Assembly: GCA_020343435.1 (NCBI GenBank)
Contig: CP070794.1
Coordinates: 583,712-647,711 of the forward strand
Direction: 5' to 3'
Origin: an archaeon
GTDB lineage: Archaea > Nanobdellota > Nanobdellia > Pacearchaeales > UBA284
DNA: 64,000 nucleotides
Shown here one piece after another: positions 9,534-50,899 of this stretch. The notes beneath the pieces were generated by a model. The model worked only from the letters and a program-made list of their open reading frames with translations, made no database searches and was not told the DNA's origin. The translations under genes were made by a program, and so were the position numbers. Positions within the stretch are counted from its first letter, which is position 1. Every line of letters starts with the position of its first letter.

Positions 9534-10644
9534 AACTATAGATTTTCAGAAGTTCTAAAGCAGATTTCTTCCAAGAGAATTTTTTAGATTGTTTTAAAGA
9601 TTTTTTAGATAATTCTTTTCTCATCTTACTACTCTTTAGAATTTTTTCTATTTTATTTGCAACATCTTTTGGATTTTTTTCATTTATCTCTAATCCAGCA
9701 TTACCAACAACTTCTTTCAAACTAGAATTCTTTCCACAAAGAACAGGTTTTCCACAAGCCATAGCTTCTAACAATGGTAAACCAAAACCCTCATAAATAG
9801 AAGTAAAGACAAAAATTTCACATAAATTAAAAATCATAGGCATATCTTTACCTTCAGCATATCCAATAATCTTAACTTTATCCCTAATTTTCAATTTTTT
9901 AATCAACTTATCAACCCTTTCTTTTTCATTTCTCCAACCATATCCACCAACAATAACTAATTTTTCATCAATTTTATCAGAAATTAAAGAATAAGCTTTA
10001 ATCAAACAAGAAAGGTTCTTTCTAGGTTCTATTGTGGATACATCTAATATAAATTTATCAGGGAGATTATATTTTTTCTTAATTTTTTCTTTAATATTTT
10101 TATTTTTTATTATTTTGAAAGATTCATCTCTTCCAGGGTAAATTACATAGACCTTTTTTCCATGAATTCTGAAGTATCTGATCAGATCTCTTTTAGTATT
10201 TTGAGAAATGGCAATAATAGCATTAGCTTTTCTTAAAACTCTTTTTAGAAAAAGTCTATAATAGATAGAACTCCTTTTTAAATGAGTGTGTGGTAAAACA
10301 ATTGGGGACAAATCATAAACAGTCATAATTCTTTTTGTATTATTTTTTACCATAAATGGCATAAATACGTTGAATTCATGTAAAATATCTAGATTTAATC
10401 TTTTTACAAATTTAGAGAGATGAAATAAATTCCTTAAACTTGTTTTCTTTCCAAAAAGAGAATAGGGAATGATAACCTCTTTAGCTTTTTTATACAATTT
10501 TTCATCATTTTTTTCAGAATGCAAAAGGAAAAATTGATTTTTCTTATTCAAATTCAGAATATTTTTTATTAAATGGTAAACATAGAAACTAATCCCAGTT
10601 TTTCTTTTCAAATCTATAGCATCACTAACTAACCCAATCTTCAT
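9526..10644 (-). CDS. Glycosyltransferase family 1
   Basis: It has GT-B architecture and the C-terminal motif 'FTSIYEGFGLPLLEAMACGKPV'. Confidence 0.8.
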   Translation of the reverse strand: MKIGLVSDAIDLKRKTGISFYVYHLIKNILNLNKKNQFFLLHSEKNDEKLYKKAKEVIIPYSLFGKKTSLRNLFHLSKFVKRLNLDILHEFNVFMPFMVKNNTKRIMTVYDLSPIVLPHTHLKRSSIYYRLFLKRVLRKANAIIAISQNTKRDLIRYFRIHGKKVYVIYPGRDESFKIIKNKNIKEKIKKKYNLPDKFILDVSTIEPRKNLSCLIKAYSLISDKIDEKLVIVGGYGWRNEKERVDKLIKKLKIRDKVKIIGYAEGKDMPMIFNLCEIFVFTSIYEGFGLPLLEAMACGKPVLCGKNSSLKEVVGNAGLEINEKNPKDVANKIEKILKSSKMRKELSKKSLKQSKKFSWKKSALELLKIYSSI

Positions 10645-11747
10645 TTTAATATCTCCTCATAAACTTTCTTAGTTTCATTTATTGTTTTATTCCAAGAAAA
10701 TTCTTTTCTAGTATTTTTTGCTATTTTTTTAGCAAAAGAATTCCTTTTCTTAGTGTTTTTTAATAAATTAATCATCTTTTTTGAAGCATCAGAGATATCT
10801 TTCGCTATGATACTAGATTTAACAACTTCTTTTGGGATGTGAGCATCTTGCATTGTGATAACAGGAATACCTAACGCTGCTGCTTCTATGATTGGCAATC
10901 CAAATCCATCAACTTCACTCGGATAAATAAACATATCAAAGCCTCCCATAACTTTGAGCCTTTCAGTTTCTTTCACAAACCCTTTGAAATAAACCTTACC
11001 ATGAGACATTTTTTTAATCTTTTCAATAAAGGCATTCCTTCGAACTTTACCATATATTTCTAATTTAGAATTTGGTAATTTTTCATTTACTTTATTAAAG
11101 ATCTTAATAGCCAAATCTGGTCTCTTACTTGGAACAATAGAAGTAAGAAAGCCAATAATAAATTCTCTCTTTTTTTTATGATTCTTGACTTTGGTTTTAA
11201 CAAATTCTTCTTTGATAGAAATAGGAATTACAGTAATCTTCCTTTCAGGAACCTTTAGATATTTAATTAAATCCTTTTTAGTTTGTTCAGATATTGAAAT
11301 AATGTGATCAACTTTCTTAACAGCTTTGCTAAAAAGCTTTTTCTGCATTCTAGCATAACCTCTACTCAGCATCCTTCTAGGACTAGTAACTGGAAAAAGA
11401 TCATAAAATGTTACAACACTTTTTTTATTCTTAATAGGAGAGAGAGGAACTAAACTTGGATTAAGATAATGAATTAAATCTGGAGAAAAACCTTTTTTTT
11501 GATAATTTTTATAACCTTTTCTTATCTTCTCAGGATTTTTGATAAGTCTTCTAATCGCATTTAAGAAAAGATACACTATTTTTTTAATAAAATCCCTATC
11601 ATAACCTTTTATTCCAACTTCAGAATATGTATCTATTACCCCAATATCAATTAACTTCTTGAATCCATCTATAAGTCCAACTTCATAATTACTTATTCCT
11701 TCTCCAATATCTCCCCTTATTTTCTCTCCTATAAACAAGACTCTCAT
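10641..11747 (-). CDS. Glycosyltransferase family 1
   Basis: It carries the 'YPSEVDGFGLPIIEAAALGIPVI' motif. It overlaps the downstream GT1 gene by 4 nt. Confidence 0.8.
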   Translation of the reverse strand: MRVLFIGEKIRGDIGEGISNYEVGLIDGFKKLIDIGVIDTYSEVGIKGYDRDFIKKIVYLFLNAIRRLIKNPEKIRKGYKNYQKKGFSPDLIHYLNPSLVPLSPIKNKKSVVTFYDLFPVTSPRRMLSRGYARMQKKLFSKAVKKVDHIISISEQTKKDLIKYLKVPERKITVIPISIKEEFVKTKVKNHKKKREFIIGFLTSIVPSKRPDLAIKIFNKVNEKLPNSKLEIYGKVRRNAFIEKIKKMSHGKVYFKGFVKETERLKVMGGFDMFIYPSEVDGFGLPIIEAAALGIPVITMQDAHIPKEVVKSSIIAKDISDASKKMINLLKNTKKRNSFAKKIAKNTRKEFSWNKTINETKKVYEEILK

Positions 11748-11827
11748 ATCTCTACTTACATCATAGAATTATTAAAGATTATGGTATAACTGGATAACTT
11801 TATAAATTTCAACCAATTTCCAGGATT

Positions 11828-12268
11828 ATGAAGATCCTTTTAGTAGCAGCATCTGGTGGACATGTAGAAGAGATACTTGGATTATGTAAACACTTGAAAG
11901 GACATGATATATCTTTCTTTACTTTTGATGATAGACATCTAAAGAGCTTAAAATATACCCAACATTTAACACAAGACCCAAGAAGAAATCCTCTAAAACT
12001 TTTGAAAATATTCTTCAAATCTCTTAAAATACTCAGTAAAGAAAAACCAGATGTAATAATCTCTACAGGAGGACAGATTTCAGCTATTATCGGAGTTTTA
12101 TCTAAACTATTCAAAACAAAGCTGATCTATATAGAGACCTCTTCAAGAATTACCTCACCATCCCAAACAGGAAAAATTCTTTATCCTTTCTCAGATCTTT
12201 TCATTGTTCAATGGAAACCTTTATTGAAAGTATACAAAAAAGCAAAGTATGGAGGTCTTTTAATATGA
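11828..12268 (+). CDS. Alg14-like (PssD/Cps14F-like) membrane-anchor subunit of a split UDP-sugar glycosyltransferase
   Basis: The 146-aa protein begins 'MKILLVAASGGHVEEILGL' and contains 'PDVIISTGGQIS', the N-terminal half of a GT28/MurG-type fold. It is coupled by an ATGA overlap to an Alg13-like ORF. Confidence 0.65.
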   Translation: MKILLVAASGGHVEEILGLCKHLKGHDISFFTFDDRHLKSLKYTQHLTQDPRRNPLKLLKIFFKSLKILSKEKPDVIISTGGQISAIIGVLSKLFKTKLIYIETSSRITSPSQTGKILYPFSDLFIVQWKPLLKVYKKAKYGGLLI

Positions 12269-41757: not shown

Positions 41758-41832
41758 GGGGCTGTGGTGTAGCTTGGTCTAGCATTTAAGGTTTGGGACC
41801 TTACGACCCCGGTTCAAATCCGGGCAGCCCCA
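41758..41832 (+). tRNA. tRNA-Pro (anticodon UGG)
   Basis: Hand-folded: GGGGCTG/CAGCCCC acceptor, anticodon arm TAAGG-TTTGGGA-CCTTA and T-arm CCCGG-TTCAAAT-CCGGG. It is 75 nt with no CCA. Confidence 0.9.
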
Positions 41833-41841
41833 TGTTGAAAA

Positions 41842-42453
41842 ATGCCAGTATTAATCAATTTCAAGATTTGCGATAATGCAAAAGAATGTGGAGGAATCAC
41901 AGCTTGCAAAAGCGGAGCTATCTACTGGGACAAGGAAAAGAAAACAATTGCTATAGATAACTCAAAATGCACCGGATGTGGTGAATGTGTTAAAGAATGC
42001 CCTGTTGGAGCTATTAGATTAGCTAAAACAGATGAAGAATATGAAAGAATTAAGAAAGAAATAGAAGAAGATCCAAGAAAAACATCTGACTTATTTGTAG
42101 ATAGATATGGAGCACAACCAATTCACGATTACTACTTAACAACTAGTGAGAATTTTGATTCTGAAGTTGTACAATCAAATAAACTAACCGTGGCAGAATT
42201 ATTCAACGATGATTCTATACAATGTTTATTAGACTCAATTCCAATCAAAGATCTATTTGAAGGAATAGATATTAAGTACAAAAAAGTAGAATTAAAAGAT
42301 AATTCTTTGCTAGAAAAATATGAAATTAAAGAACTTCCATCCCTATTATTTTTCAAAGATGGCAAGCTCTTAGGCAGAATAGAAGGGTACAAAGAAACTA
42401 AAGATAAAGAGGCTGTTAAACAAGAAATCAAGGAAATTACATCTAAATCCTAA
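41842..42453 (+). CDS. 4Fe-4S ferredoxin-domain / thioredoxin-fold fusion protein
   Basis: The N-terminus has 'CTGCGECVKECPVGAI' plus additional Cys residues. The C-terminal 'ELPSLLFFKDGKLLGRIEG' is a thioredoxin-fold signature, but no CxxC is present. Confidence 0.55.
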   Translation: MPVLINFKICDNAKECGGITACKSGAIYWDKEKKTIAIDNSKCTGCGECVKECPVGAIRLAKTDEEYERIKKEIEEDPRKTSDLFVDRYGAQPIHDYYLTTSENFDSEVVQSNKLTVAELFNDDSIQCLLDSIPIKDLFEGIDIKYKKVELKDNSLLEKYEIKELPSLLFFKDGKLLGRIEGYKETKDKEAVKQEIKEITSKS

Positions 42454-47144: not shown

Positions 47145-48359
47145 ATGAGGCTGATATCTGATCTACATGTTCATTCTAGATTTGCAAGAGCAACTTCTAA
47201 TGAATTAAATATCCCTAATCTAGAAAAATGGGCAAAAGTAAAAGGACTAGGACTTATAGGAACAGGAGATTTCACACATCCAGAATGGAACCAAGAACTA
47301 AAAAGAGATCTAAAGGAAGATGGAACAGGAATTCTAAAAACAGAAAATAACTTTCCATTTGTTTTACAAACAGAAGTTTCATTAATGTATTCTCAAGGAA
47401 ATAAAGGAAGAAGAGTTCATTTAGTCCTATTAGCTCCTTCTTTTGAAATAGTAGATCAAATCATAGATTATTTTGCAAAAAAAGGAAGATTAGATTATGA
47501 TGGAAGACCAATATTTGGATTAAATGCAATAGAAGTTACAGAATCTTTAAAATCAATTTCAGATCAAATAGAAATCATTCCAGCACATATCTGGACACCA
47601 TGGTTTGGTTTACTCGGATCTAAATCAGGATTTAATTCTTTTGAAGAAGCATTTGAAGATCAAGTTAAACATATTTATTCCTTAGAAACAGGATTAAGCT
47701 CAGATCCCCCTATGAACTGGAGACTTTCCCAATTAGATAAATACTCTATTTTATCATTCTCAGATCTACATAGTTTCTGGCCATGGAGAATAGGAAGAGA
47801 ATCAACTATCTTTGAATTACCAGAATTAACTTATAAAAATCTAATAAATGCAATAAGAACAAAACAAGGATTAGCAGGAACAATAGAAGTAGATCCTGGC
47901 TATGGAAAGTATCATTTTGACGGACATAGATTTTGTAAATTCTCTTGTTCACCTCAAGATTCTAAAAAAAGAAATAATACATGTCCTAGGTGTAATAAAC
48001 AATTAACAATCGGAGTTTTAAACAGAGTAGAAGAATTAGCAGATAGAGAAGAAGGATTTAAACCTGAAAATCCAAAACCTTTTCATTCTTTACTTCCATT
48101 ACATGAATTAATCTCACTAGTTCTTGAGACTTCAATTTCAACGCAAAAAGTTTGGAAAGAATATAATCATTTGATAATGAAATTTGGAAATGAATTTGAT
48201 ATTCTACTTAACACTCCAGAAGAACAGTTAATAAAAGTTGTTTCAGAAAAAATTACTTCAACAATAATAAAAAATAGAGAGGGGAAAATTAAAGTTAAGC
48301 CAGGATATGATGGAGAATATGGGAAAGCAATGTTAGAAGAGCAAAAGACTTTATTCTAG
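47145..48359 (+). CDS. endoQ: Endonuclease Q (PHP-domain, deaminated-base endonuclease family)
   Basis: It has PHP-type 'DLHVHSRFARATS' and 'GTGDFTHPEW' motifs and 'PAHIWTPW'. A Zn-finger 'CPRCNKQLTIGVLNRVEEL' and a C-terminal 'KPGYDGEYG' follow. The match to Pyrococcus EndoQ architecture, as I recall it, covers the whole length. Confidence 0.8.
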   Translation: MRLISDLHVHSRFARATSNELNIPNLEKWAKVKGLGLIGTGDFTHPEWNQELKRDLKEDGTGILKTENNFPFVLQTEVSLMYSQGNKGRRVHLVLLAPSFEIVDQIIDYFAKKGRLDYDGRPIFGLNAIEVTESLKSISDQIEIIPAHIWTPWFGLLGSKSGFNSFEEAFEDQVKHIYSLETGLSSDPPMNWRLSQLDKYSILSFSDLHSFWPWRIGRESTIFELPELTYKNLINAIRTKQGLAGTIEVDPGYGKYHFDGHRFCKFSCSPQDSKKRNNTCPRCNKQLTIGVLNRVEELADREEGFKPENPKPFHSLLPLHELISLVLETSISTQKVWKEYNHLIMKFGNEFDILLNTPEEQLIKVVSEKITSTIIKNREGKIKVKPGYDGEYGKAMLEEQKTLF

Positions 48360-49894
48360 GGTAGATCTTCTGGTCTTGTACCATACATCCTGAAAAAAAT
48401 ACTTTGGGAAGAATCCCTTCTATTTTCTTCTGGAACTAACCCTCTAAACTGTCTAACTGCATGAATAGCATCATCCCCAAACCTTAATCCGACATCTGTT
48501 TCTGATACATCTCCTTTATATCCCATCACTGTTGCAGCCATTGCCATCTGTCTTATCTCAGCCACATCAGCATCATAGCATGCTCTAAACTGTTCTGAAG
48601 TAAATTCCCCTCCCCTTCTAGCACGCGCTAAACCATATGCTAAGTTAAACATTTCCTCAACTCCTGGGTGCATGTCGGTATCTCTTTGTGGTCTATTTCT
48701 TGCAGCAGAGATTATTGCATCATATATATTCTGTCTTCCTTTTTTTCTTCTCCAAACAACATCTTCAACTAGTCCTCCAATTGCACGATAATTATCTGTT
48801 GATAGAAGTGCTTGTTCTAGTGGAAGAGACATCTCTCCATCTTCAGCCATCCTCCAAACTGTTGTCCTATCTTTTCCCCGTAACCTCCTCTTTAGTAATT
48901 CATAAAAAATTCCCGCTCTTTCACTATCTCTCCCAGTTACAACCCTACTTAAAGGAGCTATTGGGACTGCCAATGGAGAAACCAAGTTTATTAGCTCTCT
49001 TTGGTGGAGTGAAGGACGATCAAAAACATCATCTAATTTTTGTTGGCTTGTTACAATAACAATACCATTTCTTGGAGTAGAACTTATCTCTTTTATTGCC
49101 TCAACAGCTTGTTCAATAGTATAACCCGGATTTCTTAATCCAAAACGTTGAACATCCTCTAAAATTAAAATATTAGCATTATAAACCCCATCTAAGAATC
49201 TTTGGGCAGCTTCTTTCTGAGTATCTGAAGTTCTTGTATCAAATCTTTGTTTAGTTCTTCTTATCAAATTACCCGCAGTTGTATAGACTAAACGTGGTCT
49301 TCTACTTTTTAATTTTCTTCTGTTTCCAGGAGTTAATGCCGCAATTTCATTATCTAAAATCCTATGTCCTATGGCCTGTACTAAATATGTCTTTCCAAGT
49401 CCAGAGTCTCCATGTAGGAATAATACCGGGAAAAGAATCTCTCTTTTAGAACAATAACTCTTTGCCATTCCGGCAGCAACGCCATTATGTCGTGAAACTA
49501 GCATATCTCTAAATGTATGTCTCGAATCTAATTGATTTCTCATTCCTTCTATCTTGGCAACTCTTTGTTCCAATTTAGAAGGACTTCTTGAATCTCCTCC
49601 TTCTCCCCAAACTCTATCAGCCTCCCATAAAAGTCTAGACATGTGGGTATTTTCAAGAACTCTTCTTCCACCATCTTCATATCTGACTGTTTTAATTCCC
49701 AAATCTTTTACAGCACCAAGCACTTTATCTATGTGGTTTTTTTCTCCATGAATCATTATTGCTTCAGGAACACAGATAGTCAAAACTTCTCCATCAACAT
49801 CTAATACAGATCTTTGATAAAATCCTGCCGCAGCAGGACCCAAAGCATCAAAAATTTTCTGATTAAGTTCTCTTTGATCAATTCCCTCAGCCAT
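48356..49894 (-). CDS. Bacterial-type DnaA-like AAA+ protein (domains I-IV recognisable)
   Basis: It carries 'HTFRDMLVSRHNGVAAGMA', Walker A 'LFLHGDSGLGKTYLVQAIGH', Walker B 'ILILEDVQRF', sensor I 'IVIVTSQQ' and sensor II-like 'DNYRAIGGLVEDV'. The C-terminal HTH-like region is 'AEIRQMAMAATV...VGLRFG'. Each element parallels E. coli DnaA motifs as recalled from memory. Confidence 0.7.
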   Translation of the reverse strand: MAEGIDQRELNQKIFDALGPAAAGFYQRSVLDVDGEVLTICVPEAIMIHGEKNHIDKVLGAVKDLGIKTVRYEDGGRRVLENTHMSRLLWEADRVWGEGGDSRSPSKLEQRVAKIEGMRNQLDSRHTFRDMLVSRHNGVAAGMAKSYCSKREILFPVLFLHGDSGLGKTYLVQAIGHRILDNEIAALTPGNRRKLKSRRPRLVYTTAGNLIRRTKQRFDTRTSDTQKEAAQRFLDGVYNANILILEDVQRFGLRNPGYTIEQAVEAIKEISSTPRNGIVIVTSQQKLDDVFDRPSLHQRELINLVSPLAVPIAPLSRVVTGRDSERAGIFYELLKRRLRGKDRTTVWRMAEDGEMSLPLEQALLSTDNYRAIGGLVEDVVWRRKKGRQNIYDAIISAARNRPQRDTDMHPGVEEMFNLAYGLARARRGGEFTSEQFRACYDADVAEIRQMAMAATVMGYKGDVSETDVGLRFGDDAIHAVRQFRGLVPEENRRDSSQSIFFRMYGTRPEDLP

Positions 49895-49916
49895 ATCTCA
49901 CCTTAGTTCTATCAAT

Positions 49917-49924
49917 TTATAAAG
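49917..49924 (-). promoter_or_regulatory. TATA-like box for the DnaA-like gene
   Basis: Minus-strand 'CTTTATAA' ends 22 nt before ATG 49894. Confidence 0.4.
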
Positions 49925-49972: not shown

Positions 49973-49993
49973 ATCAAGATACTTATCCTTTTT

Positions 49994-50065
49994 GCCTCTG
50001 TAGTTCAACGGATAGAACACGCGGCTACGGACCGTGAGATCTGGGTTCAAATCCTAGTAGGGGCA
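49994..50065 (+). tRNA. tRNA-Arg (anticodon ACG)
   Basis: Hand-folded: GCCTCTG/TAGGGGC acceptor (with G-U pairs), D-arm GTTC-AACGGATA-GAAC, anticodon arm CGCGG-CTACGGA-CCGTG and T-arm CTGGG-TTCAAAT-CCTAG. It is 72 nt. Position 34 is A. Confidence 0.8.
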
Positions 50066-50722
50066 TTAATCACAACTAGAACATGTTTCATAACCTCTCA
50101 ATTCAGCTTCTTCCTTTGTTTCAAAACAAATCAAATTCTCTTTCTTAATTTTCTGGGCCCATTGACAACCACATTTATGATATTTATTCGAATTCTTACT
50201 TGCAGCATAGTTATCTTCTTTAGAACATGCCAAATAAACACATCCAGAACTCTTAGTTATTGGCTCTCCTATCTGTTTCCAAATACCTTTCTTAGCTTCA
50301 ATAGCTTGCTGTTCAGCTTGAGAAATCATATTTTGATATTTTTCATCTTCATTATAGAATTTTGCAATAGCTAATCCTTCTCCAACAATCTCAGCATTAA
50401 CTAAAGAACCATCTAACCAAACCCATCTCAATAACCTATCATACCTATCCTTATTTTCAATATCTCGTTCTAATTCTATTTCTTTAAACAAAACTCTAGA
50501 TTCTAAGAACTCTTTAGCTTCTAAATAAAATTGTTCATTTTTTTCAGGAGTATCTATTCCCAATAACCTAACTCTATCTCCTCCTTGTATTGTCAAAGTA
50601 TCTCCATCAATAACTTCAGTTACCAGACCTTTTTCAAAAGATTCTCTAGTTGTTTGTTGAGTTACACAACCAGAACTAATTAGAATAACCGCTAATATAA
50701 AGATCAAAACCCCTTTTTTCAT
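50066..50722 (-). CDS. Secreted/lipid-anchored thermonuclease (SNase-like) with C-terminal Cys-rich metal-binding motif
   Basis: The signal peptide has a lipobox-like 'LISSGC'. The SNase hallmark 'VIDGDTLTIQGGDRVRLLGIDTPE' is present. The C-terminal motif is 'YHKCGCQWAQKI...CFETKEEAELRGYETCSSC'. Confidence 0.8.
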   Translation of the reverse strand: MKKGVLIFILAVILISSGCVTQQTTRESFEKGLVTEVIDGDTLTIQGGDRVRLLGIDTPEKNEQFYLEAKEFLESRVLFKEIELERDIENKDRYDRLLRWVWLDGSLVNAEIVGEGLAIAKFYNEDEKYQNMISQAEQQAIEAKKGIWKQIGEPITKSSGCVYLACSKEDNYAASKNSNKYHKCGCQWAQKIKKENLICFETKEEAELRGYETCSSCD

Positions 50723-50794: not shown

Positions 50795-50899
50795 TTAGTC
50801 CTCTTCATCATCCCAATTTTCTTCCTCTTCATCACGTTTCTTCTTCTCTTCATCTTCTTCCCCTTCTTCGTCATCCCAATCATCCCCATATTCTGCCAT
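50795..50899 (-). CDS. Putative 34-aa hyper-acidic Trp-containing micro-protein
   Basis: The ORF is not in the track: MAEYGDDWDDEEGEEDEEKKKRDEEEENWDDEED. A strong Shine-Dalgarno-like 'GGAGGTC' lies 5 nt upstream of the ATG. It contains two WDDEE motifs. Confidence 0.4.
   Translation of the reverse strand: MAEYGDDWDDEEGEEDEEKKKRDEEEENWDDEED

Follow-up and report, generated by a model that had tools for sequence, protein, structure and literature searches.

A divergent DnaA-family ATPase gene in a variable slot beside tRNA-Arg on a DPANN archaeal chromosome

Archaea are taught to initiate DNA replication with Orc1/Cdc6 proteins. A 2026 preprint survey of 208 complete genomes of Nanobdellota found Orc1/Cdc6 in 206 of them and reported no dnaA at its strict threshold. 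The SSV-type DnaA-like ATPase, which occurs in archaeal viruses and "dark matter" islands (arCOG07960; PMC4158269), is an archaeal AAA+ protein of the initiator clade that is narrowly distributed and fast-evolving, and rare, fast-evolving genes have likewise been described from archaeal "dark matter" islands near integration sites (PMC4158269). Here we describe a DnaA-like gene in a 64-kb stretch of contig CP070794.1 (GenBank assembly GCA_020343435.1; hereafter the window), from an archaeon of the Nanobdellota. An original prediction made from the letters of this DNA had called the product a full-length bacterial-type DnaA that parallels its bacterial counterpart over all four domains in an otherwise archaeal genome context. 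We find that the window protein is a genuine but very divergent DnaA-family ATPase within a genuinely archaeal chromosome. On balance, we favor the interpretation that this is an accessory gene derived from DnaA, which came from a mobile element or a bacterium and has adapted to its host, and that it is not the chromosomal initiator.

The gene and the parts of its product are located in the window as follows (bases of the assignments in parentheses).

48356..49894, minus strand: DnaA-like gene, 512 amino acids (aa) plus stop, ATG start (open reading frame list and sequence)
49649..49894, minus strand: residues 1-82, probable DnaA domain I, alpha-alpha-beta-beta-alpha-beta (hhalign, shuffled sequences, AlphaFold2, relative at locus L005)
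48959..49540, minus strand: residues 119-312, DnaA-type AAA+ core including the pre-Walker box HTFRDMLV and the two-helix insert (PF00308, hhalign, Foldseek, AlphaFold2)
49388..49411, minus strand: residues 162-169, Walker A, GDSGLGKT (sequence and family alignment)
49154..49174, minus strand: residues 241-247, Walker B strand, ILILEDV (family alignment)
48695..48925, minus strand: residues 324-400, helical lid with NYRAIGG (alignments)
48359..48694, minus strand: residues 401-512, C-terminal helices, no more than a degenerate domain IV remnant (alignment, hhalign, hidden Markov model, AlphaFold2)

The translated open reading frame (ORF) is identical to GenBank UCD20906.1, annotated as "MAG: hypothetical protein JSW08_04010 [archaeon]" (MAG, metagenome-assembled genome) on a 647,887-bp contig. 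Profile searches returned a Bac_DnaA signal above the gathering score and not merely a generic AAA+ match. The Pfam model PF00308 scored 36.6 bits (gathering score 23) over residues 122-250, covering profile positions 1-108 of 162, and by the Pfam criterion the protein is a member of the Bac_DnaA ATPase family. The DnaA equivalogs of NCBIfam were the top matches with 53-60 bits, well short of the 344-410 required by their cut-offs (TIGR00362, 53.0 bits versus 343.9; NF001154, 59.7 bits versus 410), and the NCBIfam models for DnaC, IstB, DnaI and Hda scored below the DnaA models, at 15-23 bits. DnaA chains also headed the sequence comparison with the PDB, restricted to residues ~112-186.

Together with its copies in three other lineages (see below), the window protein forms a four-member family. 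Aligned by hhalign to 18 bacterial DnaAs, this family matched with 99.7% probability overall (E 8e-26) and with 99.5% in the ATPase region (E 7e-23). A Foldseek search of the PDB placed DnaA structures at the top (8btg, 2hcb, 3r8f and 1l8q, E 2e-11 to 7e-9), and the best viral matches, with E-values no lower than 4e-6, were to generic AAA+ or DnaC-like proteins. As only ~65-180 residues can be aligned to bacterial DnaA, at 25-45% identity, the donor cannot be placed by phylogeny.

The ORF and its ATPase assignment were therefore borne out, since the Walker A region and the preceding HTFRDMLV..N..A box are DnaA-like by Pfam, NCBIfam and the PDB comparison. G165, G167 and K168 of Walker A are invariant among the four family members. 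The window protein keeps the Walker B acids (E-D), in place of which the L032 relative has R-N. In the lid, Y369 is invariant in the family, and R370 stands at the DnaA sensor II position; this arginine is lacking in P0002 and in the L032 relative. Walker A, Walker B and sensor II are thus all present in the window protein as predicted, although Walker B and the sensor II arginine are not family-wide. The lid as a whole matched the DnaA lid with an hhalign probability of 2.4%. In the AlphaFold2 model, helices 207-218 and 224-238 lie between beta2 and beta3, which we take to be the site of the initiator-specific motif in DnaA and Orc. A family-specific insert of ~15 residues follows the Walker A helix and differs from DnaA.

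In comparison to bacterial DnaA (PF11638, PF00308 and PF08299; TIGR00362), the window protein thus shares the pre-Walker box, the P-loop, Walker B, the two-helix insert, the sensor II arginine, a similar length and the same domain order, with an N-terminus that is probably domain I. It differs in its low scores, an only partly aligned PF00308, an undetectable domain IV, the ~15-residue insert and the archaeal host, in which it is not universal across its lineage and is not accompanied by DnaA boxes.

Other members of the AAA+ initiator and loader clade were considered and rejected. DnaC, IstB and DnaI belong to the same clade and give weak matches (PHROG 50, E 7e-7; NCBIfam, 18-23 bits). However, these scores lie 30-40 bits below those of DnaA and compare to cut-offs of ~190-230, the Pfam model IstB_IS21 was not among the matches, the window protein has a DnaA-type N-terminus and pre-Walker box, and no transposase or DnaB-type helicase is encoded nearby. 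Hda is set apart by its score (TIGR03420, 15.5 bits versus 194.8), and the 512-aa window protein carries both N- and C-terminal domains. Archaeal Orc1/Cdc6 has the initiator AAA+ fold that would be expected in an archaeal genome; yet its structural match was weaker (Foldseek E ~6e-6 versus 2e-11 for DnaA), no Orc/Cdc6 family of Pfam or NCBIfam was among the matches listed, and no winged-helix C-terminal domain was detected in the window protein. The SSV protein is ~250 aa long and is not known to have a DnaA domain I. In contrast to this viral ATPase, with which it shares an initiator-clade AAA+ fold in archaea, narrow distribution and fast evolution, the window protein differs in length and architecture, matches no PHROGs family other than DnaC-like loaders, and has no integrase or viral genes beside it. 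A tblastn search of a phage and archaeal-virus collection returned no archaeal virus matches. Its rarity and rapid evolution also liken the gene to the "dark matter" island genes mentioned above.

The N-terminus is a probable DnaA domain I. The N-terminal part of the family aligned to DnaA domain I with 85% probability (hhalign, E 6e-6), as opposed to 0.1-0.9% for non-cognate DnaA domains and 5.4% for the reversed family N-terminus, and none of 2000 shuffled sequences matched the real score against the domain I hidden Markov model (HMM). The N-terminal ORF of the L005 relative came close to the Pfam DnaA_N gathering score (24.2 versus 24.6 bits). The AlphaFold2 model, for which the input alignment contained DnaA sequences, shows helices 7-18, 20-26 and 52-65 and strands 30-34, 37-41 and 69-74, in the order typical of DnaA domain I. 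The prediction of a domain I-like N-terminus is thus probably correct; the window protein itself (P0001) had no Pfam DnaA_N match even at E<=10.

For the C-terminus, the claimed similarity to all four domains does not hold up, as domain IV could not be demonstrated. Pfam Bac_DnaA_C did not match the window protein, even at E<=10, and hhalign gave a probability of 1.9% against DnaA domain IV. The domain IV HMM scored 3.8 bits, a value that was reached by 5 of 2000 shuffles of the window protein and by 256 of 2000 shuffles of P0002, the closest full-length relative. The piece aligned by this HMM (ADVAEIRQMAMA..SETDVGLRFG against RQvAMY..S..eIG..FGG) does bear a likeness to domain IV, of the form RQMAMA ... 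S..[DE][IV]G..FG, that is real in the sequence. In DnaA, DNA is contacted by a basic loop ahead of this piece and an RDHTTV-type signature behind it; going by the alignment, the C-terminus of the window protein has neither this loop nor the recognition signature GGRDHTTV. The structure prediction that had been suggested for this region depended on the input: with DnaAs in the alignment, AlphaFold2 produced a confident helical C-terminus and Foldseek aligned ~395 columns to DnaA domains III-IV, whereas a family-only alignment gave a predicted local distance difference test score (pLDDT) of 55 for the whole model, dropping below 50 in the C-terminus, and this low-confidence C-terminal model matched only generic helical repeats in Foldseek. 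Single-sequence searches of the N- and C-terminal fragments against the PDB yielded chance matches only. Half of the family, namely the copies in L005 and L032, does not have this region at all. Judged from the aligned piece, the C-terminus is possibly a degenerate domain IV remnant.

"Full-length bacterial-type DnaA" was therefore an overstatement: the ATPase core stands and the N-terminus is probable, but domain IV and equivalog-level scores are lacking. We classify the gene as an archaeal accessory DnaA derivative with a probable domain I and a domain III.

As an initiator of the DnaA type, the protein falls short in equivalog score, domain IV, DnaA boxes and universality. DnaA boxes (TTATCCACA, at most one mismatch) occurred 18 times versus 19.8 expected, with none near the gene. 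No repeat arrays, att-like repeats or other repeats were found around the gene, and the locus showed no skew feature. The gene is absent at the syntenic site in the closest relatives and is frameshifted in loci L004-6. Because the phylum has Orc1/Cdc6 for this role and neither DnaA boxes nor repeat arrays lie nearby, the gene is unlikely to be the principal chromosomal initiator. The suggestion of a replication initiator in the original prediction is thereby weakened by the closest relatives that do without the gene, the lineage with a frameshift in the P-loop and the phylum survey, and its alternative, a remnant of a mobile element, fits best.

A working secondary initiator would be a different matter: by analogy with the captured origins of Sulfolobus, the DnaA-type protein of a captured replicon might fire an extra origin beside its gene. 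The combination of a probable domain I and an AAA+ core with intact P-loop, Walker B and sensor II arginine would equip the protein as an initiator, one lineage shows purifying selection on the gene (see below), and archaeal initiator genes usually lie beside their origins (Robinson & Bell 2007, as cited in PMC11880632). However, neither the 98-bp spacer to the tRNA gene nor its surroundings contain a repeat array, an enrichment of DnaA boxes or an obvious unwinding element, the skew is featureless here, the recognition signature of domain IV is absent and two relatives lack the domain, and the closest relatives of the host do without the gene. We consider a secondary initiator quite improbable. 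Slimmer still is the chance that a DnaA-descended initiator fires a captured extra origin by the tRNA-Arg and hands over to the archaeal MCM machinery; if true, this would be a natural hybrid of two replication-initiation systems with a presence/absence polymorphism among Woesearchaeota-like DPANN archaea.

The interpretation as an accessory gene builds on its surroundings, which comprise the following features.

47145..48359, plus strand: EndoQ-like (PHP / MJ0043_C) gene, conserved flank of the slot (synteny)
49916..49923, minus strand: TATA-like box TTTATAAA, 29 nt 5' of the ATG (sequence; survey of 55 window genes)
49993..50066, plus strand: tRNA-Arg(ACG), orthologue of tRNA-Arg(GCG) in relatives (ARAGORN, Rfam, alignment)
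50066..50722, minus strand: secreted SNase-type nuclease, conserved opposite flank of the slot (Pfam PF00565, 77.5 bits; synteny)

The order RIO kinase, eS17e, Alba, tRNA-Met, SNase, tRNA-Arg and EndoQ-like is common to Woesearchaeota and Pacearchaeota MAGs. The closest matches of the EndoQ-like protein sit in MAGs titled Woesearchaeota, Pacearchaeota or Nanoarchaeota, with 59-79% identity in the 100 closest of 160 related loci and 48-79% overall. The predicted archaeal context, with Alba, eS17e, a RIO-type kinase and the EndoQ-like gene in the same order as in related MAGs, is thus confirmed, and because this order is shared with relatives, the locus belongs to a bona fide DPANN archaeal chromosome without chimera.

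Mis-assembly or contaminated binning that attached bacterial DNA to an archaeal contig could have accounted for the atypical composition of the gene (an arginine share R/(R+K) of 0.73; GC content 0.38 versus 0.31 for the window). We give this explanation next to no credence and rejected an assembly chimera, since homologues recur at this position in independent assemblies (ENA, JGI and NCBI); additionally, the gene overlaps the stop codon of the EndoQ-like gene, lies 98 nt from an archaeal tRNA gene and has a host-like promoter and host-like GC content at third codon positions (GC3). The overlap is formed by a palindromic CTAG (window 48356-48359), from which the stop codons of the convergent EndoQ-like and DnaA-like genes are both drawn; there is therefore no intergenic space or terminator between the two genes.

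The tRNA-Arg beside the gene had been called unusual. Its anticodon is truly ACG, as opposed to GCG in nine relatives (L088 and eight aligned ones), but the gene is merely the syntenic tRNA-Arg(GCG) with G34 replaced by A, the sole anticodon difference in the eight-relative alignment, and it serves as a landmark of the hot spot. A34 tRNAs are unusual in archaea. Among 15,790 codons of the window, CGT occurs 21 times, CGC 2, CGA 17 and CGG 4, so that CGC is almost absent. The ACG anticodon may be genuine or may stem from an error in the consensus. A functional link between the DnaA-like gene and this tRNA was rejected, as 40 of the 57 arginine codons of the gene are AGA.

The family is very small. 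When 1.84 billion representative proteins were searched exhaustively with phmmer (E<=1e-3), 102 matches were obtained, all but two of which were bacterial DnaAs matching ~65 residues around the P-loop. The two true relatives, P0002 (526 aa; residues 10-341 align with 27% identity) and P0006 (238 aa), lie in the same gene neighborhood on other DPANN-like contigs. One further member, in L032, was recovered when all ORFs of the 160 syntenic loci, retrieved via the EndoQ-like neighbor, were searched. Word-indexed searches with the protein, a three-sequence alignment or P0002 as queries returned only the query itself.

All four copies adjoin tRNA-Arg near the EndoQ-like gene, in one archaeal sub-clade. 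The window copy lies on the 5' side of the tRNA, 98 nt away, and the copies of the three other lineages lie within 0-30 nt of the tRNA 3' end: in L001, 2 nt separate the stop codon from the 3' end of a tRNA-Arg(GCG) that contains an intron, the L005 copy overlaps the tRNA by 19 nt, and the L032 copy is 30 nt off. The L001 tRNA gene (11583-11694, minus strand; intron ~40 nt) was missed by ARAGORN and scored 49.1 bits in Rfam. In a crude neighbor-joining tree of the EndoQ-like neighbors, built without support values, the four carriers fall into one clade with non-carriers interspersed. In the closest relative, L088 (79% identity of the EndoQ-like protein), EndoQ is followed by tRNA-Arg(GCG) 35 nt further on and then by SNase, with no DnaA-like gene. 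In L009, L010 and L079, the gap between EndoQ and SNase amounts to a ~70-nt tRNA gene or ~180 bp, which therefore leaves no room for a DnaA-like gene. No gene remnants were seen in the empty slots of relatives, including L088.

In other relatives, the slot holds different cargo: a Zot-like P-loop ATPase (L020, 6080-6937), a LAGLIDADG endonuclease with a helix-turn-helix (L008, 11311-12057), a reverse-transcriptase-like ORF, recognized by eye from its YVDD motif, with an ORF of unknown type (L012, 11229-13390), and an unknown 195-aa ORF (L007, 11424-12008). One ORF of the reverse-transcriptase region (L012, 12271-12981) had no match in a Pfam scan. Directly past the tRNA-Arg in L005, we observed a 349-aa ORF (10848-11897, minus strand) without Pfam match and with a winged-helix-looking C-terminus, which may be further cargo of the tRNA-Arg slot.

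The DnaA-like copies are far more diverged than their surroundings. The four versions are 21-27% identical pairwise, whereas the flanking genes of the carriers, including the EndoQ-like neighbors, are 60-85% identical. Between L001 and L032, protein identity is 84.5% for the EndoQ-like gene (nonsynonymous divergence, dN, 0.12), 84.3% for the glycosyltransferase (dN 0.09) and 95.8% for Alba (dN 0.02), but 26% for the DnaA-like gene, with a dN of ~0.9 that is ~10x that of its neighbor. Over the short term the excess is smaller. Between L001 and its near-identical strain L087, the dN of the DnaA-like gene is 1.8x that of the adjacent glycosyltransferase, and its ratio to synonymous divergence (dN/dS) is 0.20 overall (ATPase 0.12, N-terminus 0.46, C-terminus 0.34), compared to 0.055 for the glycosyltransferase. 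Because the L001/L032 divergence far exceeds what the short-term relative rate would predict, the copies would be either non-orthologous, having been replaced from a diverse pool, or the products of episodic acceleration. In the same strain pair, the DnaA-like dS is half that of the glycosyltransferase (0.17 versus 0.34; L001 10001-11581 against L087 1183-2763), which hints at a more recent exchange of the DnaA-like gene.

In L004, L005 and L006, a frameshift at a G6 run precisely in the P-loop interrupts the gene and is the same in all three assemblies. The frameshift, CTTTGGGGGGCC within Walker A (~9960-10000), separates ORFs of 177 aa and 238 aa and may mark a pseudogene, be programmed or result from a systematic error. 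Given the dN/dS of ~0.2 in L001/L087 and this frameshift, the gene is maintained by purifying selection in one lineage and seems to be decaying in another.

These data bear on whether the gene is ancestral at the locus. It could have been inherited vertically, evolving extremely fast and being lost repeatedly, and act, for example, as an ATP-dependent host regulator of transcription or the cell cycle. The shared neighborhood in four lineages that fall into one clade, the dN/dS of 0.2, the host-type promoter and GC3, and the lack of element genes or att repeats are all consistent with this. On the other hand, with L001 and L032 neighbors 84-96% identical, the DnaA-like proteins, at 26% identity, have diverged 5-6x more than expected from the measured short-term relative rate, the side of the tRNA on which the gene sits varies between lineages, no fewer than five losses would have to be assumed within a small clade, and other selfish genes occupy the same slot. 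We therefore regard vertical descent as rather unlikely.

Alternatively, the ATPase might be a conflict gene, acting in defense or anti-defense, that interferes with the replication of invading elements and has diversified in an arms race. Its presence/absence polymorphism, its extreme divergence in close hosts, a hot spot shared with selfish genes, and N- and C-terminal dN/dS values above that of the ATPase region would suit such a role. However, no PADLOC defense model matched (the best, TRIP13, had an E-value of 0.01), the gene stands alone without an effector partner, and dN/dS is well below 1 in every region. We hold a conflict role to be improbable.

In composition, the gene combines foreign and native traits. 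The amino acid make-up is foreign-looking: its R/(R+K) is the highest of 56 window ORFs, and the GC content of the gene lies above that of the locus in all four carrier genomes. Synonymous positions are host-like (GC3 0.205). The TATA-like box TTTATAAA precedes the ATG at a 29-nt spacing that recurs in front of many other first genes of the window (upstream survey covering 55 genes), with a GGTGA at 49898-49902 between box and ATG. The original prediction of an own TATA-like box at genome-typical spacing was accurate in this respect, and its description of the gene as domesticated agrees with the GC3 and the promoter. Going by these sequence features, the gene looks adapted to the codon usage and promoter type of its host.

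Taken together, DnaA descent, rarity, patchy distribution, tRNA adjacency, divergence and a foreign composition with host-like synonymous sites lead us to favor an accessory gene from a mobile element. We propose that a very small, fast-diverging family descended from DnaA, with domain I, an AAA+ core with intact P-loop and a helical C-terminus that is variable, sometimes missing and devoid of a DnaA-box recognition signature, would form a single-gene accessory cassette. Flanked by the EndoQ-like gene on one side and the SNase/Alba/eS17e/RIO block on the other, this cassette would occupy the variable slot by tRNA-Arg in a single sub-clade of Woesearchaeota-like DPANN archaea. Its source may have been the replication initiator of a mobile element, or a bacterial dnaA passed through one, captured at a tRNA-linked integration hot spot, adapted to host codons and promoter, and then exchanged, replaced or lost between lineages. 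Biochemically, ATP binding would drive self-assembly on DNA at a specific site other than DnaA boxes, and domain I would recruit a partner.

Several observations weigh against this proposal. Neither an integrase nor an att-like repeat nor another element gene was found in the four carrier lineages, and no relatives were found in IMG/VR, scanned with the protein and with a two-member alignment, nor in INPHARED phages or PLSDB plasmids, although the peptide patterns for the IMG/VR scans were poor and DPANN elements are few in these collections; tblastn against phages and plasmids gave weak bacterial dnaA matches only. With no integrase, att repeat or episomal relative found and no episomal source pool seen, the mobile-element origin is deduced from the behavior of the gene. 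A host gene that serves the cell could show purifying selection and a native promoter just as well. The proposed oligomerization on DNA draws on family resemblance, and the position of the arginine finger is ambiguous, differing between alignments. Finally, our analysis of this genome covers the 64-kb window, and that the genome encodes Orc1/Cdc6 is presumed.

Further observations concern the wider locus. Between SNase and tRNA-Met lies a 34-aa, extremely acidic ORF (MAEYGDDWDDEEGEEDEEKKKRDEEEENWDDEED; 50795-50899, minus strand), and a similar ORF is apparently present in the tRNA-Arg/SNase spacer of L088 (by eye, reverse complement). At 41758-41848, ARAGORN made overlapping calls of a tRNA-Pro(TGG) on the plus strand and a tRNA-Gln(TTG) on the minus strand. 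As relatives have tRNA-Pro(TGG) in the corresponding region (plus strand in L009, L012 and L088, minus strand in L007), the tRNA-Gln call is probably a mirror artefact.

DnaA-descended proteins with a probable domain I and a DnaA-type ATPase thus exist in DPANN chromosomes, where threshold-based annotation has missed them. If the gene were only a decaying relic, this would amount to a modest note on annotation and evolution. Beyond that, the locus offers a tangible example of a replication-initiator module transferred across domains or by elements, it defines a variable hot spot within the reduced genomes of DPANN archaea, and its DnaA-like gene is a testable candidate for an unconventional initiator or replication regulator.

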